Positions 1,093-36,382 of a stretch of DNA of 39,998 nucleotides are shown here, in pieces. Position 1 is the stretch's first letter; each line of letters begins with the position of its first letter. The notes under the pieces were generated by a model. That model was not told the origin of the DNA. It saw only the letters and a program-made list of their open reading frames with translations, and made no database searches. The position numbers and the translations under genes were made by a program. Source of the stretch: an uncultured Bacteroidales bacterium (GTDB lineage: Bacteria > Bacteroidota > Bacteroidia > Bacteroidales > JAEINX01); the NCBI GenBank assembly GCA_964494265.1, contig CAZBSL010000002.1:1-39998 (forward strand), written 5' to 3'.

Positions 1093-1352
1093 ATTTCAAT
1101 TTTTTATCAAAAGATAAAAACTTTGCCTTAAAAGAGCATCATTGCTCCATCACTTTGCAAGGCGTTTTACGAATTGTGTCAGGTTTTTGAAAGAGAGAAA
1201 TCTCTCTAACTCTTTCATTTGATTAATGATAGAAGAATTAAAAATCTGACATTTTCCGTTTCTTGACTATTTTGTTAGTTTATTTTGATGTAAAATTAAA
1301 ACATAATAATTGAAAAACAAATTTTTTTAGATGTTTTTGAAAATATTTTATC

Positions 1353-1499
1353 CGGATACCGGATATTAGATTATGGATACTGGATTCTGGAGACTTAAGA
1401 CTGAAGACTGAAGATTGGAGACTGGAAACTGAAGACTGGAAACTGAAGACTGGAGACTGGAGACTGGAGACTGTAGACTGAAAACTGGATATTAGATGC
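1353..1499. repeat. Heptanucleotide microsatellite, about 21 tandem copies of TGGAGAC / TGAAGAC / TGGAAAC
   Basis: Read directly as cggatac cggatat tagatta tggatac tggattc tggagac ttaagac tgaagac ... tgtagac tgaaaac tggatat. Both ends carry GGATATTAGAT. No ORF of 60 aa or more lies here. Confidence 0.9.
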
Positions 1500-1717
1500 C
1501 ATATAAAGGATTGGTGATACTGTAAAGTCTAAATTTCAAAAAATACTTCAATATCTTATATCAGGATTTTTATTATAAAAGCACGTATTAAAATCCAATA
1601 TGATCAGATTGTAGCCTTATAACAATATAGCAATTTAACAATGAAACAATTTTAATAAAAATATAAACCAACCTTCTTCGAAGGTGGTCATGTTTTTATA
1701 GCTTTGAACCAAAAACA

Positions 1718-2215
1718 AAAATAATATTTGTAACTGCATTTGATGAGTATGCTATTCGGGCATTTGAAGTAAATGCAATCGACTATTTGTTAAAACCGGT
1801 TAATCCCGATAGATTGACAAAAGCTCTTGACAGAATTGGAAAGCAAGAAAAGGATTCTTTCTCATCAAAAAAGAAACTTGGAATTGAGGATTCGGTTTTT
1901 TTAAAACTTGATAATAAATATCGTTTTTTAGAAGTAAAAACTATATTGAAGGTTGAATCTGCTGCTGATTATACTATGGTTTTTTTGCGTGATGGAACAA
2001 AAATGCTAACTCTTAAGACATTGAAAGAATGGGAATTTAGACTCCCGGAACAAATGTTTTGTAGGATTCATCGTTCAACAATTATTATTTTTCTATTCAT
2101 TAATAATATTGAACCATGGTTTAATCATTCATACATGGTTTATTTGAAAGATTGTGAAAAACCGGTAGCAATGAGTCGAAGATATTTTTCAACTATCAAA
2201 AAAAGGATGGGCTGA
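1718..2215 (+). pseudogene. 5'-truncated LytTR-family response regulator. It keeps only the last helix of the receiver domain plus the LytTR DNA-binding domain.
   Basis: The frame is open back to a TAA at 1664-1666. Upstream of the listed TTG start it reads KIIFVTAFDEYAIRAFEVNAIDYLLKP, colinear with EIIFTTAFDEFAIKAFDMNAVDYLLKP of the full-length regulator at 35590-36351. About 85 aa are missing, including the phospho-acceptor Asp. The C-terminal part has LytTR-like RIHRS...EPWFN...SRRY. Confidence 0.7.
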
Positions 2216-2485
2216 AAAAGTGCTTGTTATTAGTTTTCGTAAAAATAGCAGGGAATGTGACACTTCAAATTAATTCTTTGGGTTTTTCGCGATTTGTCTG
2301 CATACCTTGCATGGAATTTTTAGGTCTGTTTATCAGGCAGAATTACTAACTAAATAATTACAATAACTCATTGATTTTTATTACAAATTAAAATATTAAA
2401 ACTTAGATTTTTTTAGTTTTAAGTGACTTTATTATCGAAAATTAAATATTTTAAAAATGTGTGAAAAATTCCGTGATTAAATATT

Positions 2486-3544
2486 TTAATTGTTAATAAC
2501 TCCCCCGGAACTATCTTTAATTGCTCCCGTAACCGACTTCAAGCAATTTATTTCTCCACGTATTTTCAAAACACCGAGAAAAGCAAAGATCATGGCTTCT
2601 TTGAAATCAATGATTGTTTTCTCGGGAATGTGAATTTTATGATTAGAATGAGCTTTAATTCGGCTGATAAGAAAATCATTATAAGCTCCACCGCCACTTA
2701 TTAATAAACTCTTACTTTTTTTATTAGAAATTGATTTAGATATTTGCTTTGCAAAGTGCTCACAAAGTGTTCGTAATTTATCTGAAGGGGGAATTTTGAA
2801 TTTTTGTAAAATAGGTTCGAAATGTGCGATTACCCATTCTTTACTTAGAGATTTTGGATTTTTTTGTTTATAATAATTAAGATCATCTAATTTTAATAAA
2901 AGTTGTGGATTTAAATTTCCGCTTTTGGCAATTTTACCTTTATCATCGAAAGCAAGATCAAATTCAGCGGCAATTTTATTAAGAACAATATTTACGGGGC
3001 AAATATCAAAAGCAATTCTTTCATTAGCTTCATTATCAAATGAAATATTTGCAAAACCCCCAAGGTTTAAACAATAATCGTATTGAGAAAAAAGAAGTTT
3101 ATCGCCAATCGGAACCAATGGAGCACCCTGTCCTCCTAATTTTACATCAAGGCTTCTGAAATCGGAAACTACCGTAAGTTTTGTTTTGGCTGCTATAGTT
3201 GAACCTTCACCAATTTGAAAGGTAATCTTTTCTTCAGGTTGATGAAAAATCGTATGCCCGTGAGAAGCAATGAAATCCGGTTTTAAGTTATTGTTTTCGA
3301 GAAAAATATTTACGAGCTTGCCAAGATAATCTCCATATTCTGAATGAGTTTTTACAAAACCGTAAGCATTACTAAGATGAAGTGAACTTAATTTTTCCTT
3401 CCAAGTATTATCATAATCGAAAGTTTGGGCTTTAACAATTTCGAAATTCCATTTGTTAAGTTTTTTCTGAAAAACACAAAATGCAATATCAACGCCATCA
3501 AGCGAAGTGCCTGACATAATTCCTATTGCATTATATTGCTTCAT
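2486..3544 (-). CDS. anmK: Anhydro-N-acetylmuramic acid kinase
   Basis: The N-terminal IGIMSGTSLDGVDIAF matches the AnmK signature (GxMSGTSxDGxD). The length is 352 aa, and the gene sits next to murF. Confidence 0.85.
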   Translation of the reverse strand: MKQYNAIGIMSGTSLDGVDIAFCVFQKKLNKWNFEIVKAQTFDYDNTWKEKLSSLHLSNAYGFVKTHSEYGDYLGKLVNIFLENNNLKPDFIASHGHTIFHQPEEKITFQIGEGSTIAAKTKLTVVSDFRSLDVKLGGQGAPLVPIGDKLLFSQYDYCLNLGGFANISFDNEANERIAFDICPVNIVLNKIAAEFDLAFDDKGKIAKSGNLNPQLLLKLDDLNYYKQKNPKSLSKEWVIAHFEPILQKFKIPPSDKLRTLCEHFAKQISKSISNKKSKSLLISGGGAYNDFLISRIKAHSNHKIHIPEKTIIDFKEAMIFAFLGVLKIRGEINCLKSVTGAIKDSSGGVINN

Positions 3545-6592: not shown

Positions 6593-7591
6593 CTAAAATG
6601 ATGGACATTTTATTGCTTCATATCTGTTAATTTTTTTGTTGCAATTAAAGTGCCATGTAAAAGATATTTCATGTGAACCACCCGAAACCTTATTTATCTG
6701 TGAAACAGCGTAGTCATAACTATACCCGAAATTAAACTTATTATATCGTAAACCTACTAATGCTGTAATAGAATTTGGGTTCTCAAAAGCATGTCTGTAC
6801 CATGTACCAAAAACAAAAGGATAAAGATTAAAATAAACACCAACGTTTAATTGCTGAAAATCACCCTGTTTTTGATATAATATATTTGGAGATACCGAAG
6901 TTTGCTTGTAATCGTCTTTACTTCTTTTGTAGTTTGATTGACTGAGATGTAATCTTGCACCTGCATGTGCTGTATATTTAATTTCTAATTTTGAATCTTC
7001 ATTTTTATAAAAACTAATATTTGGTTGAGTTAAATGGTGGGCTGCAAAACCTGCAAAAATATTATCATTTATCGCAAGCAAAATGCCTGTGGCAAAATCA
7101 GCAAAACCGAAACTCAAATTATCAGGAACCACTTCTGATGATCCAAAATTTGGATCTGAAGGATCAACCTCACTTCCAAAAATAAGTTTATCCCAATCTA
7201 ATTGTTTATTATAATAGCCTCCCTGCAATGCTGCATTTAAGAATAAATTTTCATTGACCTGAAGCTTGTATGAATAGGTTCCGCTTATGGTACTTGTCTT
7301 TAGAATCCCATCACCTGCGACGTCAAAATTCATAATTATCCCTAAACCTCCTGATAATTTATCAACAAATTGATCATAAGAAACACTATAAGTAACAAAC
7401 GAATTTGTAATGCCGGGCCATTGATTATTATAATTCAGCGATAAGCGTCCGCAATCACTTGAGCCTGCCATCGCAGGATTTAAATAAACCGGATTAGCAT
7501 AAAACTGTGAAAAACTCGGATCTTGAGAATAGGCTGAATTCATAATAAAAAATACAGAAATTATTACTAAAGTTAATAATTTCTTTTCCAT
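6593..7591 (-). CDS. PorP/SprF-family type IX secretion system membrane protein
   Basis: The start was moved to Met54 (MEKKLLTLVIISVFFIMNSAYSQDPSFSQFYANPVYLNPAMAG, a family-typical N-terminus). The C-terminal region has beta-barrel-like alternating composition. The start coordinate comes from ORF-track arithmetic and may be off by 1 nt. Confidence 0.75.
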   Translation of the reverse strand: MEKKLLTLVIISVFFIMNSAYSQDPSFSQFYANPVYLNPAMAGSSDCGRLSLNYNNQWPGITNSFVTYSVSYDQFVDKLSGGLGIIMNFDVAGDGILKTSTISGTYSYKLQVNENLFLNAALQGGYYNKQLDWDKLIFGSEVDPSDPNFGSSEVVPDNLSFGFADFATGILLAINDNIFAGFAAHHLTQPNISFYKNEDSKLEIKYTAHAGARLHLSQSNYKRSKDDYKQTSVSPNILYQKQGDFQQLNVGVYFNLYPFVFGTWYRHAFENPNSITALVGLRYNKFNFGYSYDYAVSQINKVSGGSHEISFTWHFNCNKKINRYEAIKCPSF

Positions 7592-7822
7592 GTTAATTAC
7601 TGCAATTATTTGCAAAAATTTTTTTGCCGACAATATTACAAATAATTTCATTATTGATAATAATTTCTCATTATTTCCATGATATATTAACAATATTAGC
7701 TTTTTCAGAGCGTTAAAAGAATGATTTATTATTAAGTAGGTTTCATTCAATATTCAGTGATGTTAAATTATGCTTGATTAATTACGTTAAAATTATTTGT
7801 TTTATTGTATAATGACACAAAC

Positions 7823-10800
7823 ATGAAGTGGAAAATTCCAATTATATATATATCAATAGCTATCTTACCTTTTTTTGCAATTTCTCAGGAAAAGAGTGAT
7901 CTAAAAAAAATCGAATGGACAGGTATTGAAAATAATTACTATTCGATAGAAGATTCTTATGAGCGAATTTCTTTTTCAGGTGCGGCTTACATTCCTGAAA
8001 CAAATATTTTGCCTTCTTATTTTAATAGAGTCTTATTGAATTCGGCAAATGATGAAATTAAGGTTTCTTTGAGAAATAAAATTTTTGAAGAAGCAAATGC
8101 CGATGAAGTAAAATTATTGCAGGAAGCCAATTTTAATGATAATGAAATTCAAATTTCAACATCATTATTAATGGAGCGAAAAATTCCTTATGCAGGTATT
8201 ACATTTATTCCAATAAGGAAAGATTCTTTAACCGGAAAATTCGAAAAACTTGTTTCCTTTAAATTTAATATCCGGATTATTGAAAATCTCAGCCCGGTAT
8301 TAAAATCAGGTTTAAGAGTATATCCTGATAATTCAGTACTTGCAAGTGGTGATTGGTATAAACTTGGAGTTGAATCATCAGGGATGTATAAAATTTCTTA
8401 TGAGGTTTTATCAAGCATGGGAATTAACCCAAGCTCAATTAATCCTAAAAATATAAAAATTTATGGTAATGGTGGCGGAATGCTACCTGAAAACAATAGT
8501 GTTTTCAGATATAATGATTTGCAGGAAAATTCTATCATTGTTGTTGGTGAAAATGATGGTAGTTTTGACCCAAGTGATTATATTTTATTTTATGCCGAAT
8601 CCTCAGATGAGTGGGTTTATGAAAATATTCAATTTAGGTTTGAACATGAAGTGAATCTTTATTCCGATTTGAATTATTATTTTCTTACGATTGCAAATGA
8701 AGCGGGAAATCGAATAGCAATGCAACAGCAATCCTCATTACCCTATACCCACCAAGCAGATGAGTTTTTGGATTATCAGTCGCATGAAGTCGAAGAATAC
8801 AATCTTATAAAATCAGGGAAAGATTGGTTTGGTGAAAAATTTGAGAACATTACTTCTTATGAGTTTCCTTTTACCTTTCCAAATATAATTAATAATGCTA
8901 AAGTTGATTTACTTTACCGTGTTGTAGCACGGTCTAAAAAAACAAGTTCTTTTAAAATATTTGCGAATGGAAATTTAGTTAAGAAAGAGGATATTAATCC
9001 CATTTCAGATGCACCATTTAGTACTTATGCTTTATACAAGACAGGTTCTGACACTTTTAATACATCCGGTTCCACAAACATTATTGAAATTTCTTATACG
9101 AAAACTGAACCTACATCAGTTGGCTGGCTTGATTATATTGAACTTAACGCAAAAAGAAATTTGATTTTTACAGGCGGCCAAATGAGTTTCAGTAATCCTT
9201 ATTCAATTGGAAACAATAAAGTTACTGAGTTTGAAATAAGAAATGCTACACAGTCGGTTAAAGTTCTCAATATAACCGATCCTCTTGAGCCGAAAATGAT
9301 AAATGCATCATCATCAGGGAATAATTTAATATTTAAGCTTGCTACCGACTCACTCCTACAGTTTATTGCTTATGATGGTAGTTCATATTTTTCAATTTCA
9401 AATTTTGAGAAAATCGCAAATCAAAATCTGCATGGACTTGGAAACATAGACATGCTAATTATTCATCCACAGGAATTTCTTTCTGAAGCCGAACGATTAG
9501 CTCAATTTCATAGAGATATTGATAATTACGAGGTTTATAACGTTACTCCACAGAAAATTTATAACGAATTTTCTTCGGGAAGACAAGATGTTACAGCTAT
9601 TAAAGATTTTATTAAAATGTTTTACGATAGGGCCGAGCAGGGTGATGAAATAAAATATGTAATATTTTTTGGTGATGCTTCTTATGATTACAAAGACCGA
9701 ATAATTGACAATACTAATTTAGTTCCAACCTGGGAAACCGTATCATCATTAAAACCTATCACTTCAATTGCATCTGACGATTATTTTGCATTTCTTGATG
9801 ATAATGAAGGAACCGGATCATCTGGTCTTCTTGATGTTTCTCTTGGCCGTTTTCCTGTTGATAATTTAGATGATATTAAAAAGCTTGTTGATAAAACGTT
9901 TCTATATGTTGAAAACAACCTTGATAATATGGGCGACTGGCGAAATGTTGCCTGTTTTGTTGCTGATGATGAGGAAAGTAACAGGCATTTTAATTCTTGT
10001 GAAAAAGTTTCGAAATATCTGACAAGCCTGACTAAAAATTTAAATATTGATAAAATATATTTGGATGCATATCCTGAGGTTTCTACTCCCGGTGGAGAAC
10101 GCTATCCGGAAGTTACTGAGGCGATTAATGACCGAATGGAAAAAGGTAATCTGATTATGAATTACATGGGGCATGGTGGAGAAGTTGGTTGGGCACATGA
10201 AAGAGTCTTAAATGTTTCAGATATTATAAATTGGAAAAATATTGATAAACTTTCTGTTTTTATTACAGCTACTTGTGAATTTAGTAGGTATGATGACCCT
10301 GAACGTATTTCAGCCGGTGAACTTGTTTTTATTAATCCAAATGGTGGAGCCGTTTCTATGTTTACAACGGCCCGGCCTACAATTATTAGCGGAAACATAA
10401 TTATTAATATGGCAATATACAAATATGTATTTGATACTCAGGGCAACACATATAAAAATTTCGGAGACATAATGCGCCATTCAAAAAATCAAGATGGTAT
10501 TAGTAATACTGATATGATGTATATTTTATTTGGTGATCCCGCAATAGGATTTGCTTTACCGAAATATTCAATTAAAACTGCAAAGATCAACAATGGTTCA
10601 ATTACAGATATTCCCGATACCTTAAAAGCATTATCCAAAATGTCAGTCGAAGGAAGCCTTTTTGATAATAATGGTAATAAATTGAATAATTATTCAGGTA
10701 TTCTTTTTCCGATTGTTTATGACAAACCAACTGAAATTATCACACTTGGACAGGGCAGCCAGCAAGAGTCTTTTTATCTGCAGAATAGTATTCTTTACAA

Positions 10801-11641
10801 AGGCAAAGCGGAAGTTGAAAACGGAGATTTTAGTTTCTCTTTTGTAGTTCCCAAAGACATTGCTTATAATTATGGTTTTGGAAGAATAAGTTATTATGCT
10901 AATAGTGATGATGGTAGCGATGCATGCGGATATTATGATAGTATAGTTGTCGGTGGAAATTCCACTAAAATTATACCTGATTCTAAAGGCCCTAAAATCG
11001 AGCTTTTTATGAATGACGAAAATTTTGTTTTCGGGGGATTAACCAATCAGGATCCTAAGCTGCTTGCTTTTGTTACCGACTCTACCGGGATTAATACGGT
11101 TGGTAACGGTATTGGCCATGATATTGTAGCAATTCTCGATAATAATACCGAAAATCAAATTGTTTTGAACGAATATTATGAGTCGGATATTAACAGTTAT
11201 CAGAAAGGAAGTATTGTCTATCCGTTTAGAAATCTAAGTAATGGGCATCATACTTTAAATTTAAAAGTTTGGGATGTTAATAATAATTCATCAAAAGCAT
11301 ATACCGAATTTATAGTAGCTGAATCTGAGGCTATGGTTCTTGAAAACCTTTTGAATTATCCTAATCCGTTCAAAGACAAAACTTCATTTGTTTTTGAACA
11401 TAATCAAGCAAATAGTGATTTGAAGGTTGAAATTCAAATATTTTCACTATCAGGGAAATTGGTTAAAACAATAACTACTAATTTGAATACTACCGGATTC
11501 AAGTCGAAACCAATTGAATGGCATGGCAACTCTGATAATGGTGCCCCTATTGCCAAAGGATTGTATGTTTATAAAATAAAAGTTTCAGATTTTAATGGAA
11601 AAAGTTCTGAAAAAGTTGAAAAACTAATAATCTTGAAATAA
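7823..11641 (+). CDS. porU: Type IX secretion system sortase PorU (C25-like peptidase), copy 1
   Basis: The ATG at 7823 gives MKWKIPIIYISIAILPFFAISQ as the signal peptide. The protein has C25-type His and Cys blocks (NYMGHGGEVGW, FITATCEFSRYD), FGDASYDYKDR, and a retained CTD-like tail (LLNYPNPFKDKTSF...). porV lies downstream in the same operon-like run. Confidence 0.8.
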   Translation: MKWKIPIIYISIAILPFFAISQEKSDLKKIEWTGIENNYYSIEDSYERISFSGAAYIPETNILPSYFNRVLLNSANDEIKVSLRNKIFEEANADEVKLLQEANFNDNEIQISTSLLMERKIPYAGITFIPIRKDSLTGKFEKLVSFKFNIRIIENLSPVLKSGLRVYPDNSVLASGDWYKLGVESSGMYKISYEVLSSMGINPSSINPKNIKIYGNGGGMLPENNSVFRYNDLQENSIIVVGENDGSFDPSDYILFYAESSDEWVYENIQFRFEHEVNLYSDLNYYFLTIANEAGNRIAMQQQSSLPYTHQADEFLDYQSHEVEEYNLIKSGKDWFGEKFENITSYEFPFTFPNIINNAKVDLLYRVVARSKKTSSFKIFANGNLVKKEDINPISDAPFSTYALYKTGSDTFNTSGSTNIIEISYTKTEPTSVGWLDYIELNAKRNLIFTGGQMSFSNPYSIGNNKVTEFEIRNATQSVKVLNITDPLEPKMINASSSGNNLIFKLATDSLLQFIAYDGSSYFSISNFEKIANQNLHGLGNIDMLIIHPQEFLSEAERLAQFHRDIDNYEVYNVTPQKIYNEFSSGRQDVTAIKDFIKMFYDRAEQGDEIKYVIFFGDASYDYKDRIIDNTNLVPTWETVSSLKPITSIASDDYFAFLDDNEGTGSSGLLDVSLGRFPVDNLDDIKKLVDKTFLYVENNLDNMGDWRNVACFVADDEESNRHFNSCEKVSKYLTSLTKNLNIDKIYLDAYPEVSTPGGERYPEVTEAINDRMEKGNLIMNYMGHGGEVGWAHERVLNVSDIINWKNIDKLSVFITATCEFSRYDDPERISAGELVFINPNGGAVSMFTTARPTIISGNIIINMAIYKYVFDTQGNTYKNFGDIMRHSKNQDGISNTDMMYILFGDPAIGFALPKYSIKTAKINNGSITDIPDTLKALSKMSVEGSLFDNNGNKLNNYSGILFPIVYDKPTEIITLGQGSQQESFYLQNSILYKGKAEVENGDFSFSFVVPKDIAYNYGFGRISYYANSDDGSDACGYYDSIVVGGNSTKIIPDSKGPKIELFMNDENFVFGGLTNQDPKLLAFVTDSTGINTVGNGIGHDIVAILDNNTENQIVLNEYYESDINSYQKGSIVYPFRNLSNGHHTLNLKVWDVNNNSSKAYTEFIVAESEAMVLENLLNYPNPFKDKTSFVFEHNQANSDLKVEIQIFSLSGKLVKTITTNLNTTGFKSKPIEWHGNSDNGAPIAKGLYVYKIKVSDFNGKSSEKVEKLIILK

Positions 11642-11642
11642 A

Positions 11643-14600
11643 ATGCCAAAATTATATCAAATAATCCTATCACTTTTCTTTTTGCCTGTTTTGGTTTTTT
11701 CGCAGAATCTTAATAGAAATATAAAATGGGAAAATCCGGAAAAATTAATAATTTCAGAAGATCAATTTATTGAAGTATTGGTTTTTGAAAATGCAATTTT
11801 TAAAGACGATGCAGGTTTCTTACCATTTTATTTTGAAAGATTCAAGCTTGATTCAAAAGATACTGAAATTAAATTTGAGTTGAATAATATTGTTTTTGAT
11901 GAACTTACGGAAATAGATATTTTAAAAAGCGAAGATATTGGAAATATTTCTAATGAAATTATAATTAATTCGGATATCTCGGTTGGCAGGGGAATGCATT
12001 TTGCCTGTCTTTCATTTTGTCCGATACGTAAAAACCCCGTTTCGAGAAAATTTGAAAAAGTTATTTCTTTTGAAATTCAAAAAAAAATAATCCAAAAACA
12101 AAGCTGTAAAAACCCTCAAAAAAGCAGAACTTATACTGATCATTCTGTACTAAGCACAGGTAACTGGTATAAAATTAGAGCTAAAAATTATGGTATTCAT
12201 AAAATCTCATACGATGATCTGATTTCAATGGGAATGGATGTTGCTTCTATAAATCCACGTGATTTAAGAATTTATGGAAATGGAACGGGCATGTTACCCG
12301 AAGCAAACAGCGAGTTCAGAATTGATGATTTACTTGAAAATACTATTAAAGTTATAGGCGAAGAAGACGGATCATTTGATGAAGATGATTATATTTTATT
12401 TTATGCCGAATCTCAGATAAAATGGAATTACGAAGAAATGCAAAAAAGATTTGAACATTCTAAAAATCTTTATTCCGATTATACACATTATTTTATTACG
12501 GCAGACTTAGGACCCGGAAAACGGATTCAAATAATAGAATCAATTATTGCCCAACCTACAGATTATGTTACTACTTTTAGTGATTACGCTTATCATGAGG
12601 AAGACTTTGAAAATGTTATCAATTCAGGGAAGAAGTGGCTTGGTGAAAGATTTGAAAGCCAACTTTCTTATGAATTTCCTTTTAATTTCCCGAATATCTG
12701 TACCGATGTTGAAGTACAAGTGAAAATGCTTATGGTCGCTCACTCATTCGAGTATAGCTATTTTAACTTCTTTTTAAATGGAGAAGAAAAATATGAAATG
12801 AGAATCAATTCACTTGCAAATACAAGTAATACTTATGGTTTTTCAGTAGAAAAGAAATTTTCATATTTTCCCGATGATTCATTAAATGTTTTTACTGTAA
12901 CCTATGATCACCCAGCTTCATCTTCAATTGGTTGGATGGATTATATGTATATTAATTTGCGGCGTCATCTTAAGTTTTGCGGAAGCCAATTAAGGTTTCG
13001 AGATATTAATTCATTTGGTAATGGAAAAATTGCAAGGTTTAGATTGACGGATGCCTCGGATGTTGTAAGTATTTGGGATGTAAGTCGTATTGATAGTGTT
13101 ATGGAAATTAATGCCGATTTAAATAATGATTCCCTCGTTTTTACTCTGTCAACTGATTCATTACGCCAGTTTGTTGCTTTCGATGGGAGTTTTTATTATT
13201 CGCCAGAATTTGTTGAAAAACTTGATAACCAGGATTTACACGCAACTTCTAATGTTGATTATATTATTGTGTCTCATCCCGATTTCCTTGATCAAGCAAA
13301 TTGGATAGGCGATTTTCATCTTGAAAATGATGATTTATCATATATAGTTGCCACCCCGAATCAAATTTATAATGAATTTTCGTCGGGATCACAGGATATT
13401 TCTGCAATTCGCGACTTCGTTAAAATGATTTATGATAGAGCTCCGGAAGATCAAAAACCCAAATATCTTCTTTTGTTTGGTGATGGTTCCTATGATTATA
13501 AAAACAGAATTGATATTTTTTCAAATTTCGTCCCAACTTTTCAAGCATTGGAATCTTTAAGAGAAGTACAATCTTATGTTTGTGATGATTTTTTTGGAAT
13601 CCTCGACGATAATGAAGGACAAAATGCGAACGGTACCTTAGATATTGGTGTTGGCAGGATGCCGGTTAACACAACTGAAGAGGCTAATAATGTAATTAGC
13701 AAAATCCAAATCTATACATCTGAAACTCAGGATGTTATGGGTGATTGGCGAAACCGAATTTGTTTTGTTGCTGATGATGAAGGTAAAAATGCTTATTTCA
13801 ATCATGCTGAAGAGTTAAATGATATCATTCAAGCGGAACAAGATGTATTGAATGTAAATAAAATTTACTTAGATGCCTTTAAGCAAATTAAAGGAAATTA
13901 TGGTGAAAGATATCCTGAAGTCAATAAAGCAATAAATGAGCAAGTTGAAGAAGGTGCTTTTATTATTGATTATATCGGCCATGGTAGCGAAGTGGGTTGG
14001 TCGGATGAACATGTTCTGGAAATTTCAGACATTGTTAATTGGAATAATATTAACAAGCTTCCAATGTTTATGACGGCTACATGCGAATTTAGCCGGTATG
14101 ATAATCCGGGCATGAAATCGGCAGGTGAAATTATGTTTTTAAGCCCAAGTGGAGGTGCAATAGCTTTAATAACAACAACTCGACTGGCTTTCTCAACTTT
14201 TAATCAACATTTGAATAAAAGGTTTATTAGTTATGTTTATAAACAAAACAATGGTGAGTATTATACAATTGGCGATATCTATAGATTATCTAAAACTCCT
14301 CAAATTAGTAATGCAAGAAATATTACATTGTTTGGGGATCCTGCCTTGAAATTGGCTTATCCGAAATATAAAATTTCTACAAGCTTTATTAATAACGTTC
14401 CTATTTCTGAATTTGATGACACTTTAAAAGCTTTCTCAAAAGTTACTATCAAAGGAATTATTGAAAATGATGGACAAAAAGTCAGCAATTTCAATGGAAA
14501 CATTTTTCCGATAGTTTATGATAAACCTACTATTAATAAGACGCTTGGGAATAATTCGGACAGCTATCCGAGAGAGTTTTTGTTAAGGAATAAAATTTTG

Positions 14601-15437
14601 TATAAAGGACAATGCATAGTAACAAATGGCGAATTTTCATTTACTTTTGTTGTACCCGACTATCTTACACCTCAATATGGCTTTGGGTTAATCAGCTATT
14701 ATGCTCATAATGATTTTATTGATGCAAGTGGCTCAGAGCAGGAAATAATAATGGGAGGAGTCGATCATTCTGCACCTGTCGATGTTTTCGGACCCGATAT
14801 TTCAATGTATCTCGAAAAAGATGATTTTGTTTCAGGTGATGTTACAAGTGATAATCCAATTATGTATGTTTCTGTTTTTGATGAAAACGGTATAAATCTA
14901 TCCGGCGATGGTTTTGGAAGAGATATTGTTGCCGTTTTGGATGATGATTACAGACAACAAATAATTTTAAATGAATACTTTTTTCCTAATCCCGATTCCT
15001 ATCAGTCAGGAAAAATTGTTTATCCTTTTACAAATTTGTCCTACGGTGAACATAAAATAAATTTCAAAGTATGGGATGTTTGCGGAAATTCTTCAGAAAT
15101 GAAAATAGATTTCTTTGTTGATGAAAATGCAAAACTGGTTTTAAATCACGTGATTAATCAGCCTAATCCTTTTAAAAGTTCAACAGAATTTATTTTTTAT
15201 CATAATAAAACTTTAGCAGATTATGATGTTTGCATTAAAATATTTTCGATTCGAGGACAACTTGTTAAAACTATTAATAGAAATGTTAAATCTTCCAATT
15301 TTGAAATAGAGCCTATTAAATGGGATGGAAGAAACGATACTGGCGAAAAATTGAAAAATGGAATATATATTTATAAAATCTTTGTTCAAAAAGATAATTT
15401 TATAGCTGAACAAACCCAAAAGTTGGTAATTATATAA
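11643..15437 (+). CDS. porU: Type IX secretion system sortase PorU paralogue, copy 2
   Basis: It starts 1 nt after the copy 1 stop. It is colinear with copy 1 over its whole length (for example YILFYAES, FGDGSYDYKNR, DYIGHGSEVGW, FMTATCEFSRYD, INQPNPFKSSTEF). porV follows directly. Confidence 0.8.
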   Translation: MPKLYQIILSLFFLPVLVFSQNLNRNIKWENPEKLIISEDQFIEVLVFENAIFKDDAGFLPFYFERFKLDSKDTEIKFELNNIVFDELTEIDILKSEDIGNISNEIIINSDISVGRGMHFACLSFCPIRKNPVSRKFEKVISFEIQKKIIQKQSCKNPQKSRTYTDHSVLSTGNWYKIRAKNYGIHKISYDDLISMGMDVASINPRDLRIYGNGTGMLPEANSEFRIDDLLENTIKVIGEEDGSFDEDDYILFYAESQIKWNYEEMQKRFEHSKNLYSDYTHYFITADLGPGKRIQIIESIIAQPTDYVTTFSDYAYHEEDFENVINSGKKWLGERFESQLSYEFPFNFPNICTDVEVQVKMLMVAHSFEYSYFNFFLNGEEKYEMRINSLANTSNTYGFSVEKKFSYFPDDSLNVFTVTYDHPASSSIGWMDYMYINLRRHLKFCGSQLRFRDINSFGNGKIARFRLTDASDVVSIWDVSRIDSVMEINADLNNDSLVFTLSTDSLRQFVAFDGSFYYSPEFVEKLDNQDLHATSNVDYIIVSHPDFLDQANWIGDFHLENDDLSYIVATPNQIYNEFSSGSQDISAIRDFVKMIYDRAPEDQKPKYLLLFGDGSYDYKNRIDIFSNFVPTFQALESLREVQSYVCDDFFGILDDNEGQNANGTLDIGVGRMPVNTTEEANNVISKIQIYTSETQDVMGDWRNRICFVADDEGKNAYFNHAEELNDIIQAEQDVLNVNKIYLDAFKQIKGNYGERYPEVNKAINEQVEEGAFIIDYIGHGSEVGWSDEHVLEISDIVNWNNINKLPMFMTATCEFSRYDNPGMKSAGEIMFLSPSGGAIALITTTRLAFSTFNQHLNKRFISYVYKQNNGEYYTIGDIYRLSKTPQISNARNITLFGDPALKLAYPKYKISTSFINNVPISEFDDTLKAFSKVTIKGIIENDGQKVSNFNGNIFPIVYDKPTINKTLGNNSDSYPREFLLRNKILYKGQCIVTNGEFSFTFVVPDYLTPQYGFGLISYYAHNDFIDASGSEQEIIMGGVDHSAPVDVFGPDISMYLEKDDFVSGDVTSDNPIMYVSVFDENGINLSGDGFGRDIVAVLDDDYRQQIILNEYFFPNPDSYQSGKIVYPFTNLSYGEHKINFKVWDVCGNSSEMKIDFFVDENAKLVLNHVINQPNPFKSSTEFIFYHNKTLADYDVCIKIFSIRGQLVKTINRNVKSSNFEIEPIKWDGRNDTGEKLKNGIYIYKIFVQKDNFIAEQTQKLVII

Positions 15438-15557
15438 AAAATTATTCCAAAATTTAAATGCAATATTTAAAAATTATCTTCGTTATTTTGCTATCCAAAA
15501 AAATAGAGATATTTATCAATAAAATACATAAGAAAATCAAATCTTAATCTTACAAAA

Positions 15558-16763
15558 ATGAATAAAAGAAATTTTAAAATGAATTATAAAATCTTAGTTG
15601 TAATCGCTCTAATTTTTGCAATGTTCACAGGCCGTGCTCAAAATAGTGATTACGTTGGCCGTGATTTGAATACAATTACTACAGCTGTTCCTTTCTTGTT
15701 AATTGCCCCCGATGCCCGAGCAGGAGCTATGGGAGATGCAGGAGTAGCTTCAACACCTGATGCAAACTCAATGCATTGGAATCCCGCTAAATATGCTTTT
15801 ATTGATAATAAAATGGGATTCTCGGTGTCTTATAGTCCATGGCTAAGGGCTTTAGTGAACGATATCAACCTTGCTTATGTTTCGGGTTACTATCGAATTG
15901 ACGATAGACAAGTGATTGGAGCTTCATTACTATATTTTTCTCTCGGTGATATTACTTTTACAAATGTAGAGGGAGGACGAATAGGTGATTACAAACCAAG
16001 TGAGTTTTCAATTGATGCTACATATTCCAGAAAATTATCTGAAAAATTATCAGGTGCAATTTCAGCCCGTTACATTAATTCAAACCTAACACAAGGACAG
16101 TATGTTGGAGGAGTTGCAACTCATCCCGGAAACTCTATTGCTGCTGATGTTGCAGTTTATTGGCAGGATGATATTGTTCTTGGAAATATGGATGGTAAAT
16201 TTGCCTGGGGTGTCAATATTTCAAATATCGGATCAAAAATTTCTTATTCCGATAATGAAATAAAAGAATTTATTCCTACAAATCTTCGTATTGGGCCATC
16301 TTTAACCCTTGAATTAGATGATTATAATACATTATCTTTTATGCTTGATATAAACAAACTCTTGGTTCCGACACCTCCGATTTACGATATTGATTCTACA
16401 ACCGGATTACCTGTTTACAAAAATGGCAAACCGGTTATACTTGAAGGTAAAGACCCTGATGTTTCCGTAATTTCAGGTATGATACAATCATTTTATGATG
16501 CTCCCGGAGGATTTAGCGAAGAAATGCGTGAATTTAGCTTTTCACTTGGCGCCGAATATTGGTACGATAAACAATTTGCTTTAAGAGGTGGTTTCTTTTA
16601 TGAAGATAAATCAAAAGGAAATCGTAAATATTTTACACTCGGTGCAGGTTTAAGGTATAATGTGTTTGGATTGGATTTTGCTTATTTGATTCCTCTCGAA
16701 CAACATAATCCATTGGAGAACACGCTTCGTTTTTCTTTGCTGTTTAATTTTGATGCCTTCTAA
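15558..16763 (+). CDS. porV: Type IX secretion system outer-membrane shuttle/channel protein PorV (LptO)
   Basis: It has the signal peptide plus the family-typical ITTAVPFLLIAPDARAGAMGDAGVA block, a beta-barrel-like sequence, and sits immediately downstream of porU. The start could instead be Met8 at 15579. Confidence 0.85.
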   Translation: MNKRNFKMNYKILVVIALIFAMFTGRAQNSDYVGRDLNTITTAVPFLLIAPDARAGAMGDAGVASTPDANSMHWNPAKYAFIDNKMGFSVSYSPWLRALVNDINLAYVSGYYRIDDRQVIGASLLYFSLGDITFTNVEGGRIGDYKPSEFSIDATYSRKLSEKLSGAISARYINSNLTQGQYVGGVATHPGNSIAADVAVYWQDDIVLGNMDGKFAWGVNISNIGSKISYSDNEIKEFIPTNLRIGPSLTLELDDYNTLSFMLDINKLLVPTPPIYDIDSTTGLPVYKNGKPVILEGKDPDVSVISGMIQSFYDAPGGFSEEMREFSFSLGAEYWYDKQFALRGGFFYEDKSKGNRKYFTLGAGLRYNVFGLDFAYLIPLEQHNPLENTLRFSLLFNFDAF

Positions 16764-17564: not shown

Positions 17565-20500
17565 CTATTTTATCGTGATTTTTTTAGTAAAATTATTGTT
17601 TTCAGTTTCAATAATAATAAGATAAATTCCTGTTTTAAATTCAGGAATTTTTAATTTTACAATATTGTTGTTGAATTGATTATCATAAATGTTTTGCCCA
17701 AAAAAGTTAATAATCCTTATCGATTCTATTTTGCTTTCTGAAAATATATTTATTTCTTCAGTAGCAGGATTAGGATAAATTCTCAAATCTCCAGTAATAT
17801 TTTCATTCCCAAAAGAGGCCTCTTTTGTTACATTTAAAACACTATAAACACCATCCTCACTCGGGAAATCGGGTTTTGTATATGCTTCCGAAAATTCGGT
17901 AAGAAAGCTAAAGTGTACAGAAACTTCAGTTTGTATTTTAGAATCCCAAACTCTAAGCGAAATCAAATTATTGGTTTCATAACCCATTTCGTTAGTAAGT
18001 GTACTAAATACGGGAATTGAATTTTCGAGGGGGTTTTCAGAGGTTATAACACTTGCTCCCACCATTTTATCACCATCGAAAACCGCAACTTCATCACCAA
18101 TTTCCAAACCGTGAATATAAATTGAATACACAGGATCGGCTGCATTTCCACCTTGAAAATCAAAATAATATAATTGCTTTTGAGGATTTTGGTTTAAAGA
18201 AATATTTTTAGAAATATTATAAACCAATTCATCATTCGCAAACATTTTAACCAAATAGCCTTCACCCGGTTTTAAATTTCCAAGGCCATTCACCCAGTTA
18301 GGGCCGATTTTTCGTAAGGTTTCTCCACTTGAGTTTCTAATAAAATTTAAATTATCGTTCAGAATATTTGCAAAAGCATCAAGGGCATTCAATTGTATTT
18401 CCGGAAGATAACTTATGAATTGATAACCTGTTGATAATTCAATAGTACTTTGAGCAGATAGAGTTACACCCTCAAAGTTAAGTTCATAATTATCGTTCAT
18501 TTTAAATAGATAACCTTCAACACTTATCCAGTTTCCAATTCCGTTTATCCAATTCGGGCCAATTTTTCGCAAAGTTTCTCCATTTGAGTTGCGGACGAAA
18601 TCAAGTTTATCGCTTAAAACATCTTGTAAAACAGTAATCATATCAGGATATTCAAATTCAAGCCTAGTGGAAACAAATTGATAACCTTGTGATAATTCGA
18701 TTGTTTGAGTTGAATTCCCTGAATTTATAACATCAAAAAACTCAAGATATTTTTCCATCAATTCATTTTTAGTGGATTCAGTATCATCAAGGCCGGCAAA
18801 TTCAAACGAAACGCCAATAGTTCTGTAAGTTTCTGCATCGAATGCTACGCCGCAACCATAATTGGGTGATTGATTTTCAAGAATTAAGATTGCAGGCGAA
18901 TTTGCGGAAATTTGATCAATATAAGAATTTTCGCCGGAATAATTATAACTTAAACCTTCAGTAAATGAACCGAAAACACCATTAATGGTTCCGAGATCAC
19001 CTAAGCCGTCATTTAGCGGAATTATATTAAACATTGGGTGTACATCTGTTTGACTGTCATAAAACCATGTATCTCCTCCTTCCATATATAAATTTCCACC
19101 ATTATTCAAATAATTTGCCAATTCTTCACCATTATCAGAACTTAATACATCATTATTATTATAAACACCAAGACAAACAAAAATTGCCGAATATGTTTCT
19201 ATACCGGTTTCAGGAAAAGTTGTGAAATAAGAAGCATCCAAACCAAAAGCTGAAAGGCTTTCAACTATTGCTGGGCCTGAGCTTGTATTCAAATCTAAAT
19301 CAATAACTAAAAAATCTTTTTGGCCTATATAAATTTGAAAATCTTTTTGTGTTGAATATCCTGCCTGATCGTTTGCGTAAAAAGAAAAGTCAGCACAATA
19401 TCCAAGTGGAGTTTCCGGATTAACCGAAATATTAAATGATTGCGTTTCTGAGCTTTCGGCTTCAATAATTCCATAGTTATTTGAAGGATTATTGATTGAA
19501 ATGTTTGAATCTTCGCAAATTAATTCGCCAATAACTTCAATTGAGTTTGAGGTACCTGTATTTTTGACTGTGATAAGTAAATCGGCAGTTTCGCCAGGCT
19601 CTAATTTTGAATTATTGTTTCCACCGGGAAGCGGATCGTAAATTTCAAAATTTTCATATTCCAGAAACGGAGCATGGCATTCAATAGAAAAATAACTCAC
19701 CCAGCTTGTATTTTCTCCTGATGCTTCCAACAAAAAGTTTACTATATGATTGTCAGGGATAATATTTTCAACATCGAATGAAAAAGCATTTAGCAAATTT
19801 ACAATTTGGTTTCCTTCAATATTGCCAACCGATTCATAATTATCAGTAATAGAAACATAATCATCATCTGTAAATATTTCAATTTCTACATTTTCGGCTG
19901 TTTCATTACCAATATTTTTTATTTCCACGTTTAAAAATATCTCTTCACCATAATCAACCAGAGCATTGTTGTTACCGGATGAATCATTAATTACATGGGA
20001 TTTATAAGCTACAAAGGGCTCGTTTGATTGAATTACGGGTAATTTTTCATTATACCTGAAGCAATTTTGTTTAGTAATTACTAAATCAATAATTGATGAA
20101 GTATTTTGAGGAATTATCATAATATCAGTTGCTTGTCCGGTTCCATCTCCTGTACCGATTATTTCTCCATCAACCGAAAGTGCAATAAATGAGTCTTCAT
20201 CTGCTGTAATTGTAAAATAATTTAACTCGCTAATAATTGCTTCATCATGAGCTACACTAATTTGCTGAGGCATTTCAGTATGTATTACCGAAAATGCATC
20301 CCCATGATGATGAAACAAATAATAAGTAATTTCTTTTTCATAAGTATTATAAGGCCAACTTGAGGATTCAAGAAAATACTTCCCGTAAGTATTTGCAAAT
20401 GCGGGCAAGGCATATTTAGGTTTAAATTGCGGATTATAATCCGGCATAAATTCCGGCCATAAATAATCATAAACACCCCATTGATAAGTTTCATTTACAA

Positions 20501-22157
20501 GCTTATAAGCAAGAGCAGTTGAGGCGGTAATACCTAATGCTCCATGTTCCATTCGGTGAAAGGCTTCGGCAAAACATTGTGGTTCAAAGTCGAACTTTCC
20601 GGTTGAGCATCCCAATGAAAAGACATAAGTTGGAAATTCATTGCTCAAAGAACTCATATTATTTAATGAGTAACTTGGACAGCCCCAACTTTCAATATTT
20701 CCATGATCATCGTATTGAGTTATAAAAGCGCCGCTATTAATTGCATTAGTAATATCAGTTGAAATTCCTCCCGTCCATGTCAAGCCTGAAGGATCAGTCG
20801 GGATGTATCCCAATCCGTTAGGGCCAAAATAGTTTACCAAAACATCAGTACCCGGAACAGTTGCCCAATATCCGCCATTTGGATTTCCGCTATGAACCTG
20901 ATTAATTCTTACAACATCTTTACCTAATTCATTATGCAAAAAACCGACTATTGCTTCTGTACAAATTTGGAACCAACTATAGTCTTCCCACCCTGAAATA
21001 GCGATAGGATTATTATAAAAATCAGGATTTTCCGGAGGATTTCTTTCATAATCTAAAAATTTATTTATCATTATTGAAAGTTCATTTTCGTTTCTTGCAG
21101 TTATTCGGGCAATAGTGATATCGGGAAGTGCGTCGCCATCAACATCCGCATAAAGATTATCGGCAAGGCAATCTTCTGAATCAGGATGTTCAACTAATGG
21201 TGCAATAATTGTATTTCCGGAAGTTCCATGATCTCCAAGCAATAATACTGCTGCCGGAGGAATATCCCAATTGTAATAGGCATTATCAATGTATGTTTCA
21301 ATTGAATTTACCGTATTTCCTCCCAATTCTGAAATAGTAACAACCTTAGTTCTTATTCCCTGCAAGGTTCTAAAAGTTTTAATTGAATCAGCCCAATTTT
21401 TAAAACGTTCACCATCGGGACAAATAATTAAATATTCACATCCGGTTTCATCAGTTTTTCTTTTATTAAAATCAATAATAGGTAGTGAGGCCGAATTAAG
21501 AATTAAATTTTTCAACATTGAATCCCACCATTTGCTTCTGAGACGATTATCCCCGAAATCACCACTTCCATCAATAAAATCAATTTTAATTTTTGCCTCT
21601 TTTATTACTTTCAATTCTTTTGTTACAGGGTTATATTGAAAAGGGCTTATTCCAAGTTTCACAACATCTACACCTCTGATTTTTGAAGCTTCCGATAATT
21701 TAATAGCATTTTTAGGAAAGAATTCGTTTTTTAAGTATAACTTGTTGTTTTTCTTAAATTCCATTGGCGCTTTATCAGTTTGAAATGGAATTTTTGGGGC
21801 AGGAGCAATATCAATATTATAAAAACTTTCCTCTTCAATTTCAATAATTTCAAGCTGAACATGAGCAAATTGAGGAATTGCAATAAAATTACTGCTTCCG
21901 GGTAGATTTGGGGCACCTTCCTCGTTTGGCAAAAATACTCCCGAAAGAACTATATTTTGCATAATTTCTCCATTAATATTAATGCTTTCAAGAGAAAATT
22001 CGCTTATTTTATATGTCAGCTCAACACCTGTTTTACTTAACTTGGTTAAATGTAATCCGCCTTCGTTTTTACTTAGATCAGATTTAAAATTTTCGGAAAA
22101 AACACTACAATTAATTATTAAAAAGAAAAGAGATAAAAAAGTAAATATTGATTTCAT
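17565..22157 (-). CDS. Large secreted C25 (gingipain-family) cysteine peptidase with CARDB-like domains, a two-module repeat cassette and a T9SS C-terminal sorting domain
   Basis: It has a signal peptide (MKSIFTFLSLFFLIINCSVFS) and C25-like blocks (AVLLLGDHG, YDDHGN, SLGCSTGKF). Repeated CARDB-like segments include EIFLNVEIKNIGNETAENVEI and ETADLLITVKNTGTSNS. Two ~75-aa modules contain LDFVRNSNGETLRKIGPNWINGIG and LNFIRNSSGETLRKIGPNWVNGLG. The C-terminus LRIYPNPATEEINIF...KKITIK is a type A CTD (Por_Secre_tail-like). Confidence 0.8.
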   Translation of the reverse strand: MKSIFTFLSLFFLIINCSVFSENFKSDLSKNEGGLHLTKLSKTGVELTYKISEFSLESININGEIMQNIVLSGVFLPNEEGAPNLPGSSNFIAIPQFAHVQLEIIEIEEESFYNIDIAPAPKIPFQTDKAPMEFKKNNKLYLKNEFFPKNAIKLSEASKIRGVDVVKLGISPFQYNPVTKELKVIKEAKIKIDFIDGSGDFGDNRLRSKWWDSMLKNLILNSASLPIIDFNKRKTDETGCEYLIICPDGERFKNWADSIKTFRTLQGIRTKVVTISELGGNTVNSIETYIDNAYYNWDIPPAAVLLLGDHGTSGNTIIAPLVEHPDSEDCLADNLYADVDGDALPDITIARITARNENELSIMINKFLDYERNPPENPDFYNNPIAISGWEDYSWFQICTEAIVGFLHNELGKDVVRINQVHSGNPNGGYWATVPGTDVLVNYFGPNGLGYIPTDPSGLTWTGGISTDITNAINSGAFITQYDDHGNIESWGCPSYSLNNMSSLSNEFPTYVFSLGCSTGKFDFEPQCFAEAFHRMEHGALGITASTALAYKLVNETYQWGVYDYLWPEFMPDYNPQFKPKYALPAFANTYGKYFLESSSWPYNTYEKEITYYLFHHHGDAFSVIHTEMPQQISVAHDEAIISELNYFTITADEDSFIALSVDGEIIGTGDGTGQATDIMIIPQNTSSIIDLVITKQNCFRYNEKLPVIQSNEPFVAYKSHVINDSSGNNNALVDYGEEIFLNVEIKNIGNETAENVEIEIFTDDDYVSITDNYESVGNIEGNQIVNLLNAFSFDVENIIPDNHIVNFLLEASGENTSWVSYFSIECHAPFLEYENFEIYDPLPGGNNNSKLEPGETADLLITVKNTGTSNSIEVIGELICEDSNISINNPSNNYGIIEAESSETQSFNISVNPETPLGYCADFSFYANDQAGYSTQKDFQIYIGQKDFLVIDLDLNTSSGPAIVESLSAFGLDASYFTTFPETGIETYSAIFVCLGVYNNNDVLSSDNGEELANYLNNGGNLYMEGGDTWFYDSQTDVHPMFNIIPLNDGLGDLGTINGVFGSFTEGLSYNYSGENSYIDQISANSPAILILENQSPNYGCGVAFDAETYRTIGVSFEFAGLDDTESTKNELMEKYLEFFDVINSGNSTQTIELSQGYQFVSTRLEFEYPDMITVLQDVLSDKLDFVRNSNGETLRKIGPNWINGIGNWISVEGYLFKMNDNYELNFEGVTLSAQSTIELSTGYQFISYLPEIQLNALDAFANILNDNLNFIRNSSGETLRKIGPNWVNGLGNLKPGEGYLVKMFANDELVYNISKNISLNQNPQKQLYYFDFQGGNAADPVYSIYIHGLEIGDEVAVFDGDKMVGASVITSENPLENSIPVFSTLTNEMGYETNNLISLRVWDSKIQTEVSVHFSFLTEFSEAYTKPDFPSEDGVYSVLNVTKEASFGNENITGDLRIYPNPATEEINIFSESKIESIRIINFFGQNIYDNQFNNNIVKLKIPEFKTGIYLIIIETENNNFTKKITIK

Positions 22158-35173: not shown

Positions 35174-35509
35174 TTACTTTTTTTCGTTAAAATATTCCTT
35201 TTTCAATTTTTCTGCCAATTCTATGTCTTTCCTAAGAGTTTTTCTTGTCTTTTTTTGAAATCCATTCAATAAAACAACTAATCTCCCTTTATCAAAGAAA
35301 CATAAAATTCGATAAATATTAGATTGATACTCAACTCGAATTTCATAAAGACCGTCAGTTGAGGACAAGTGTTGAAAGAATTTCTTTGGTATTCTTTCAA
35401 CATGCCTTATCAATTTGAAAACGTATTCAATTTTTTCTTGAACTTGTACGTTCTGTTTTGAATAGAATTCAATAAAGTAGTCTTTATAAAAATCAATCTT
35501 TCTTATCAT
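35174..35509 (-). CDS. RelE/ParE-superfamily toxin (HigB / phage Gp49-like)
   Basis: It is 111 aa. YEIRVEYQSNIYRILCFFDKGRLVVLLNGFQKKTRK is typical of Gp49/HigB-type toxins. The toxin-first gene order matches higBA. Confidence 0.75.
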   Translation of the reverse strand: MIRKIDFYKDYFIEFYSKQNVQVQEKIEYVFKLIRHVERIPKKFFQHLSSTDGLYEIRVEYQSNIYRILCFFDKGRLVVLLNGFQKKTRKTLRKDIELAEKLKKEYFNEKK

Positions 35510-36351: not shown

Positions 36352-36382
36352 ATTTTCTTTTCTGTGTGAATTCAAATTATCG

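Follow-up and report, generated by a model that had tools for sequence, protein, structure and literature searches.

The window analysed here, a stretch of 39,998 nucleotides from an uncultured Bacteroidales bacterium (GenBank assembly GCA_964494265.1, contig CAZBSL010000002.1, positions 1 to 39,998 of the forward strand), carries two porU genes in tandem upstream of a single porV. porU encodes the T9SS (type IX secretion system) sortase, and both products are predicted to be full-length PorU proteins, each with a signal peptide, a C25 peptidase domain, an intact His/Cys dyad and a sorting tail of its own. The pair appears to descend from one ancient tandem duplication that was inherited vertically and kept across at least 19 Bacteroidales families, and the locus itself reads as a putative porU-A/porU-B/porV operon. 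To our knowledge, porU is a single gene in every model organism, including all those met in the T9SS literature consulted, and a literature search brought up no publication in which porU genes are described as double, tandem or paralogous. The tandem arrangement is an undescribed variant of a known T9SS. The genome is a Bacteroidales metagenome-assembled genome (MAG) of 3.2 Mb in 357 contigs and is 85% complete.

As a Cys/His peptidase-transpeptidase, PorU cuts the C-terminal tail off cargo proteins at T/E/D/N–G/A/S and joins the cargo to anionic lipopolysaccharide (LPS) supplied by PorZ (PMC10202324, PMC5562754). The enzyme keeps its own tail and sits on PorV; in the Porphyromonas gingivalis complex, with a stoichiometry of about 1:1:3:1, PorV is in excess, roughly three-fold over PorU (PMC10202324, PMC5562754). 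PorU is self-inhibited as a dimer, and according to a current review it is unknown how PorU chooses between release and attachment (PMC10202324). The parts of the locus that concern the sortases and their shuttle are as follows.

7823..11641, + strand: porU-A, upstream paralog, 1272 aa from ATG (same frame open from TTG 7805, 1278 aa)
10172..10174, + strand: porU-A His codon (H784 from ATG, GHGGEVGW), aligned to the GHGG His of 6ZA2
10274..10276, + strand: porU-A Cys codon (C818 from ATG, ATCEFSRYD), aligned to the TATCDF Cys of 6ZA2
11357..11617, + strand: predicted type A C-terminal sorting domain (CTD) of porU-A, TIGR04183 29.6 bits in the protein and 34.1 bits in the genome scan (cut-off 23)
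11643..15437, + strand: porU-B, downstream paralog, 1264 aa, architecture as porU-A
13980..13982, + strand: porU-B His codon (H780, GHGSEVGW), aligned to the GHGG His of 6ZA2
14082..14084, + strand: porU-B Cys codon (C814, ATCEFSRYD), aligned to the TATCDF Cys of 6ZA2
15162..15395, + strand: predicted type A CTD of porU-B, TIGR04183 25.2 bits in the protein and 30.3 bits in the genome scan (cut-off 23)
15558..16763, + strand: porV, outer-membrane shuttle barrel, NF033710 521.9 bits (cut-off 250), PF19572 247 bits

The stop codon of porU-A and the ATG of porU-B, both on the + strand, are separated by 1 nt, and porV starts 120 nt 3' of porU-B and is followed by ispF. The start of porU-A was annotated at ATG 7823 in preference to TTG 7805, because this ATG opens what looks like a typical signal-peptide sequence, MKWKIPIIYISIAILPFFAIS. 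Judged by inspection only, the N-termini of both copies consist of a short basic stretch and a hydrophobic stretch, followed by AIS–QE or VFS–QN, and may be Sec signal peptides for export to the periplasm. Downstream of the predicted signal peptide, PorU-A comprises a long-form N-terminal domain, the C25 peptidase domain, immunoglobulin-like domains and the type A CTD.

Both proteins scored far above the cut-off of 420 bits of the NCBIfam equivalog model for PorU (NF033707), with 1322.7 bits for A and 1277.4 bits for B and with model positions 1-1095 covered, and a scan of the whole genome agreed with this. The 'long form' N-terminal model NF052318 (cut-off 40) gave 52.8 and 65.1 bits, and Pfam Peptidase_C25 (PF01364, cut-off 23) gave 342 and 347 bits, for A and B respectively. 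The sorting tails were recognised by TIGR04183 above its cut-off in both copies, while the Pfam tail model PF18962 placed A below its cut-off (24.6 vs 27) and did not match B. Identity with PorU2 was ruled out for both proteins, since NF052324 returned only 162.8 (A) and 183.9 bits (B), far under its cut-off of 450. Aligned with each other by BLASTP, PorU-A and PorU-B share 553 of 1272 positions (43% identity, 63% positives) with 14 gap positions, in a colinear alignment that begins at residue 10 and ends with the last residue.

The alignment to P. gingivalis PorU (6ZA2) is likewise colinear over about 1100 residues (E 3.3e-140 for A, 1.6e-124 for B). In both copies, the GHG(G/S)EVGW His is aligned with the GHGG motif of 6ZA2 and the ATCEFSRYD Cys with its TATCDF motif. 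The published catalytic mutant of PorU is C690A (PMC5562754), and the aligned Cys is position 688 of the 6ZA2 chain, for which a two-residue offset to the published Cys690 is assumed. A MAFFT alignment of 169 PorU sequences has His and Cys in the catalytic columns of every row, including 48 upstream and 48 downstream tandem copies. Loss of catalysis in one copy was accordingly ruled out as an account of the pair at the level of the dyad, which is kept in 48/48 upstream and 48/48 downstream copies. The His of PorU-A is also invariant in alignment A2 (H613), as are the His and Cys of PorU-B in alignment A1 (H612 and C646).

Structure prediction led to the same identification. The AlphaFold2 models, covering residues from about 170 to the end, reached a predicted local distance difference test score (pLDDT) of 90.1 for A and 88.6 for B and a predicted template modelling score (pTM) of 0.81 and 0.79, and the order of their secondary-structure elements is nearly identical. 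A structure search returned 6ZA2 as the top PDB match for both models (E 1.9e-77 and template modelling (TM) score 0.53 for A, E 7.5e-79 and TM score 0.51-0.52 for B), followed in each case by the gingipains RgpB and Kgp. The moderate TM score, together with a root-mean-square deviation of about 20 Å over 1100 residues, would fit a differing relative placement of domains in a multidomain protein.

Among the three species of the genus, the ratio of non-synonymous to synonymous substitution rates (dN/dS) is 0.15-0.16 for porU-A, 0.12-0.13 for porU-B and 0.05-0.08 for porV, which points to purifying selection on both porU copies. No conversion tracts were found between porU-A and porU-B, in which the longest shared run is about 28 nt (a length inferred from 9 consecutive 20-mers), and the maximum identity in any window of 50 aa is 66%. 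The initial annotation, made from the letters of the window, had described a tandem porU duplication upstream of a single porV, with copies that are diverged, colinear and neither recent nor an assembly product, that both keep the catalytic His and Cys and that both end in a CTD. Each of these points is borne out by the results above, by the occurrence of the same pair in the whole genus and by a genome scan in which porV at 15558-16763 is the sole match to NF033710 at or above the cut-off; the structure prediction that it had suggested as a check places 6ZA2 first for both copies.

That description had also presented the pair as a peculiarity, a view that the survey across the order does not sustain. 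The survey covered 401 Bacteroidales species genomes (that of the window and 400 sampled ones), 365 of which have PorU; a strong match was defined by E <= 1e-100, and at most two matches were scored per genome. At least two strong PorU matches occur in 100 of the 365 PorU-bearing species genomes, about 10 of which look like a single gene split across contigs. All three genomes of the genus carry the tandem pair. When two-match genomes were fetched from one known coordinate, 33/38 showed porU-porU-porV, or porU-porU at a contig end. Over all fetched loci, with U for porU and V for porV, the architectures were U-V (48), U-U-V (43), U-U (5), U-U-U (1) and V-U-U-V (1). The gap between the stop-to-stop open reading frames (ORFs) lies between -94 and +165 nt in 50/50 tandem pairs, independent and out-of-order ones included. 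In the rest of the class, outside the order, two PorU matches occur in 26 of 274 PorU-bearing genomes, several of them fragments, and in one family in 8/8 genomes. The tandem pair is therefore ordinary inherited gene content in this organism.

The best 120 named homologues of PorU-B, all annotated plainly as 'PorU' and mostly in MAGs, belong to MAGs or unnamed environmental contigs, the sole named label outside MAGs being 'Bacteroidales bacterium AH-315-N07', and no clear cultured carrier was found among them. The single-contig genomes G306 and G296 and the 5-contig G059 may derive from isolates. At G123:C1:145500-159800 (- strand), three porU genes stand in tandem, one of A type and two of B type with 52% mutual identity, followed by porV at G123:C1:142928-144010, which represents a further duplication of the B paralog. 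At G451:C22:137500-149500, in another order, an independent tandem pair consists of copies that are mutual sisters, with a PorV-family gene on each side (V-U-U-V).

The window also holds the two genes that lie upstream of the pair and are transcribed away from it:

6593..7750, - strand: PorP/SprF-family barrel, divergent from porU-A, PF11751 216.7 bits
5055..6608, - strand: GldJ-like lipoprotein with FGE-sulfatase fold, lying downstream of porP in the same orientation, PF03781 145.5 bits

Of the 32 tandem loci whose upstream flank was long enough, 31 show the same divergent gldJ-porP flank, as do 4/4 single-porU loci, and the GldJ-like orthologues at the 31 tandem loci are at 59-71% identity. 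Being kept at both kinds of loci, the porP/sprF-gldJ layout forms an island of T9SS genes that is fixed in many families of the Bacteroidales.

The history of the pair was traced in phylogenies of PorU. In a FastTree phylogeny of the 169 sequences, the upstream copy of the window falls in a clade with support 93 that has 43 rows, of which 40 are upstream copies, 2 are singles and 1 is an unlinked copy; its downstream copy falls in a clade with support 99 that has 48 rows, 45 of them downstream copies. Both unite in a clade of 94 rows (support 96) that is nested among single-copy Bacteroidales sequences. IQ-TREE, run under a site-heterogeneous model on 62 rows (one pair per family, near singles and an outgroup), recovered the upstream clade at 97 and the downstream clade at 99, as sisters at 88. 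The 40 genomes that have their A copy in the A clade and their B copy in the B clade represent 19 GTDB family codes. Since upstream copies group with upstream copies and downstream copies with downstream copies in sister clades across families, the tree argues for a single old duplication followed by vertical inheritance. The median identity between A and B within a genome is 0.43, about the same as that between A orthologues of different families, consistent with a duplication close to the clade's base.

A tree of the adjacent porV genes, used as a proxy for the history of the locus, puts 37/42 tandem loci in one clade together with two or three single-porU members. The single-porU members inside the pair clade (G298, G261 and G034) are read as probable secondary losses. 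In the FastTree phylogeny, the G272/G372 and G183/G296 pairs have their upstream copies outside the main A clade, and the downstream copies of G183 and G296 lie inside the B clade, which leaves the precise base of the duplication uncertain. Younger, separate duplications, in which the copies are mutual sisters, were found within the order in G100 (tandem) and in G003 and G039 (unlinked), and outside the order in G451 (tandem) and in G575, G496, G446 and G429 (unlinked).

A comparison of the two paralogs showed that they have not evolved at the same pace. In 98% of the genome pairs compared, identity is higher for PorU-A than for PorU-B (mean 0.463 vs 0.420), and the gap is widest after the catalytic domain, where residues 916-1180 have an identity of 0.515 in A and 0.428 in B. 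PorU-A thus appears to be the slower-evolving copy and PorU-B the faster one, most clearly in the domains that follow the catalytic domain. One column is strictly diagnostic for the clades, the Asn three residues before the (L/F)LGDP motif. This ancestral Asn is kept in 45/48 B sequences and found in 59/78 other PorU sequences and in 6ZA2; in the A clade the position is Lys in 40/43 sequences, and it is Met in this genus. At three further, otherwise conserved sites PorU-B is relaxed. At a 70% threshold, only three sites were diagnostic between A and B, too few to infer specificity.

The partners of PorU in the attachment complex were not doubled along with it. PorZ (PF21544) is single in 40/40 pair-bearing and in 40/40 single-porU genomes, and 2/40 tandem compared with 3/40 single-porU genomes have a second PorV that scores above the cut-off. 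The genome of the window has one PorV, one PorZ and one PorQ, and a whole-genome scan gave no match to PorU2 (NF052324) above the cut-off. A whole second attachment complex was ruled out on these grounds: PorZ is single in 80/80 genomes, carriers of the pair do not have a second PorV more often than other genomes, and PorQ is single here. As PorZ was in no case doubled along with porU, and PorV seldom, the two sortases would share one attachment scaffold. The only PorZ of this genome (G000:C16:16-3486, + strand, about 1345-3470) is split over two overlapping frames, a part of 268 aa with the N-terminal propeller followed by a part of at least 481 aa that ends in the tail. In both other species of the genus, PorZ is one frame of about 780-790 aa, and the split would reflect a frameshift or else a fault in the assembly of the MAG.

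The cargo that such a scaffold would have to serve is large and mainly of one kind. This genome encodes 117 type A tails and 2 type B tails. At least 62 confirmed type A tails are present in 40/40 pair-bearing genomes, compared with fewer than 62 in 19/40 single-porU genomes. First-look type A candidates number 184 in the median (range 86-377) in pair-bearing genomes against 109 in single-porU genomes (p = 0.0003), with no difference in genome size; the pair-bearing genomes are essentially one clade. Type B tails, in contrast, have a median of 6 (1-14, n=40) in pair-bearing genomes, of 9 in all sampled single-porU genomes and of 21 in the 13 nearest single-porU ones. The closest single-porU relatives of pair-bearing genomes often carry 18-58 type B tails, and the low counts in pair-bearing genomes may be due to descent.

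Considering that the paralogs were long retained, are diverged, both bear the dyad and share one PorV and one PorZ, we lean towards a division of labour, in which two active sortases would have partly different jobs on type A cargo; we hold this tentatively, at a little short of an even chance. According to this scheme, PorU-A and PorU-B would both be exported through the T9SS, and each would keep its own tail, dock on PorV and act beside the single PorZ-PorQ pair. Each would cut the type A tail from cargo via a Cys-thioester intermediate and then hand the cargo to anionic LPS or release it. The large type A cargo set, 117 tails here, would be shared out between them, either by preference for cleavage site or linker, or by fate, that is anchored or released. 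It is possible, though doubtful, that a large and mostly uncultured branch of the Bacteroidales runs in this way a two-sortase T9SS on one PorV/PorZ/PorQ scaffold, in which A and B decide the fate of the cargo (LPS anchoring or release, or different linker or cleavage motifs).

Several observations weigh against a division of labour. A few lineages inside the clade (G298, G261 and G034) are apparently back to one copy, so two copies are not indispensable. Some single-porU relatives are equally cargo-rich, such as G025 and G236 with 315 and 295 first-look candidates, and the link between the pair and a rich cargo set is no more than a hint, confounded as it is by descent from essentially one duplication event. 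Moreover, the one strictly diagnostic residue gives as yet no sequence pointer to differing specificity.

The alternatives differ mainly in what they expect of the second gene. The two proteins might instead form a latent heterodimer, in which each, or mainly one, blocks the active site of the other until cargo arrives, so that the second gene would be mainly regulatory; this would extend the self-inhibition of the P. gingivalis PorU homodimer. The title of 6ZA2, the one PorU structure solved, names a 'dimeric latent' form, and a β-hairpin of the partner monomer inhibits PorU (PMC10202324); the 1-nt gap would favour coupled, near-equimolar synthesis, and 43 + 5 loci keep the two genes adjacent and in the same order. 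However, in a subunit with mainly regulatory tasks the dyad should have been lost somewhere, and both partners have kept it over a very long time in 48/48 pairs, while some lineages apparently manage with one copy. We therefore consider this arrangement unlikely, and the earlier suggestion that one copy serves a purely regulatory role is disfavoured by the same retention of His and Cys in all upstream and downstream copies. It seems quite improbable, too, that the copies are interchangeable and simply raise capacity or robustness for an unusually large type A secretome. Every pair-bearing genome is indeed cargo-rich (at least 62 confirmed tails; 86-377 first-look candidates), and 117 tails in this 3.2-Mb, 85%-complete genome would be in line with a need for capacity. 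Copies kept for dosage only are usually homogenised or lost, whereas here lineages of about 43% identity persist with asymmetric rates and no conversion, and relatives equally rich in cargo have one porU.

A split by signal class would assign type A tails to one PorU and type B tails to the other; the initial annotation had raised different CTD classes as a possibility. A PorP/SprF barrel gene adjoins the pair, cognate PorP/SprF-like barrels have been suggested to handle type B substrates (PMC10202324), and the title and abstract of PMC9143113 tie such barrels to type B substrates. Type B tails are nevertheless scarce where the pair is present (2 here; median 6 against 21 in the nearest single-porU relatives), and the porP-gldJ flank stands equally at the single-porU loci (4/4), which makes this split very unlikely. 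As for an assembly duplication or a dying pseudo-enzyme, the genome is a fragmented MAG and the downstream copy does evolve somewhat faster. The copies are only 43% identical, however, and share no run longer than about 28 nt, both frames are open over more than 1260 codons, dN/dS is 0.12-0.16, and the same pair recurs in dozens of independent assemblies, among them single-contig genomes such as G306; such an artefact or decay is scarcely credible. Among these readings, the division of labour on type A cargo is the one that we retain as the working model.

Compared with characterised systems, the proteins of the window most resemble PorU of P. gingivalis (PG0026, 6ZA2), which likewise has a C25 domain, a His/Cys dyad, a sorting tail of the uncleaved type and porV directly downstream. 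P. gingivalis has one porU, whereas the window has two head-to-tail paralogs with 24-25% identity to 6ZA2 in Foldseek structural alignments. The copies of the window also possess an additional 'long form' domain at the N-terminus, some 165 residues in length and outside the 6ZA2 match. In Flavobacterium johnsoniae, a single porU is followed by porV, with gldJ adjacent. A porU-porV-gldJ locus with a single porU is also reported for Chryseobacterium (bioRxiv 10.64898/2026.09.25.754504). These Flavobacteriales loci share with the window the order of porU before porV, the adjacency of gldJ and the protein families involved; in contrast to them, the window has porP/sprF and gldJ upstream in divergent orientation and the sortase gene doubled. 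The PorU2/PorV2 module (NF052324, NF052325), a 'putative' second sorting system, also combines a C25-type relative of PorU with a PorV-family barrel. Unlike this module, the window holds two genuine PorU copies that share one genuine PorV.

A parallel for the working model is found in Gram-positive bacteria, where a housekeeping sortase, SrtA, works alongside specialised SrtB and SrtC, all of them Cys transpeptidases that each serve a subset of surface proteins or an acceptor. This is an analogy and no homology, since fold and sorting signal are unrelated and the acceptor is peptidoglycan instead of LPS; specialisation has been demonstrated there, whereas it is only inferred for PorU-A and PorU-B.

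The points that are new here are that PorZ is never and PorV rarely duplicated along with porU, the profile rich in type A and poor in type B tails, the asymmetry in rate between A and B, and the single diagnostic column. The mechanism of T9SS cargo processing is known entirely from organisms with one PorU. Roughly one in four Bacteroidales species, most of them uncultured and each with more than 100 secreted proteins that bear tails, has long retained two diverged sortases that look active, together with a single PorV and PorZ. Their long retention on one PorV and PorZ therefore suggests that selection sees a difference between the two enzymes. Once found, this difference could show which parts of PorU set the choice of substrate or acceptor, and a two-sortase T9SS in which the paralogs decide cargo fate would, if true, amount to a natural dissection of the choice of PorU between attachment and release. 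With both genes plainly named 'PorU' in MAG annotations, comparative surveys of the T9SS do not register how many copies there are or which paralog (A or B) each of them is.

Beyond the porU-porU-porV-ispF block, and convergent with it, lies a further gene related to the T9SS:

17565..22157, - strand: gingipain-like C25 peptidase, 1530 aa, bearing a propeptide and a type A CTD, PF01364 163 bits, PF08126 79 bits, PF18962 45.5 bits, TIGR04183 43.8 bits

This peptidase is a probable substrate of the sortases, and it also holds a CARDB-like region. A search for the Bacteroidetes promoter motif TANNTTTG found 66 occurrences in the window against 67 expected, which is chance level, and none in the spacers 7751-7822 and 15438-15557, so that the motif is uninformative on transcription units. 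The remaining genes of the window are unrelated housekeeping genes and regulators. A small Gp49-like protein (DUF891, HigB-type; 35174-35509, - strand) adjoins a LytTR response regulator (35590-36375, - strand), and a second, truncated LytTR ORF is located at 1787-2215.

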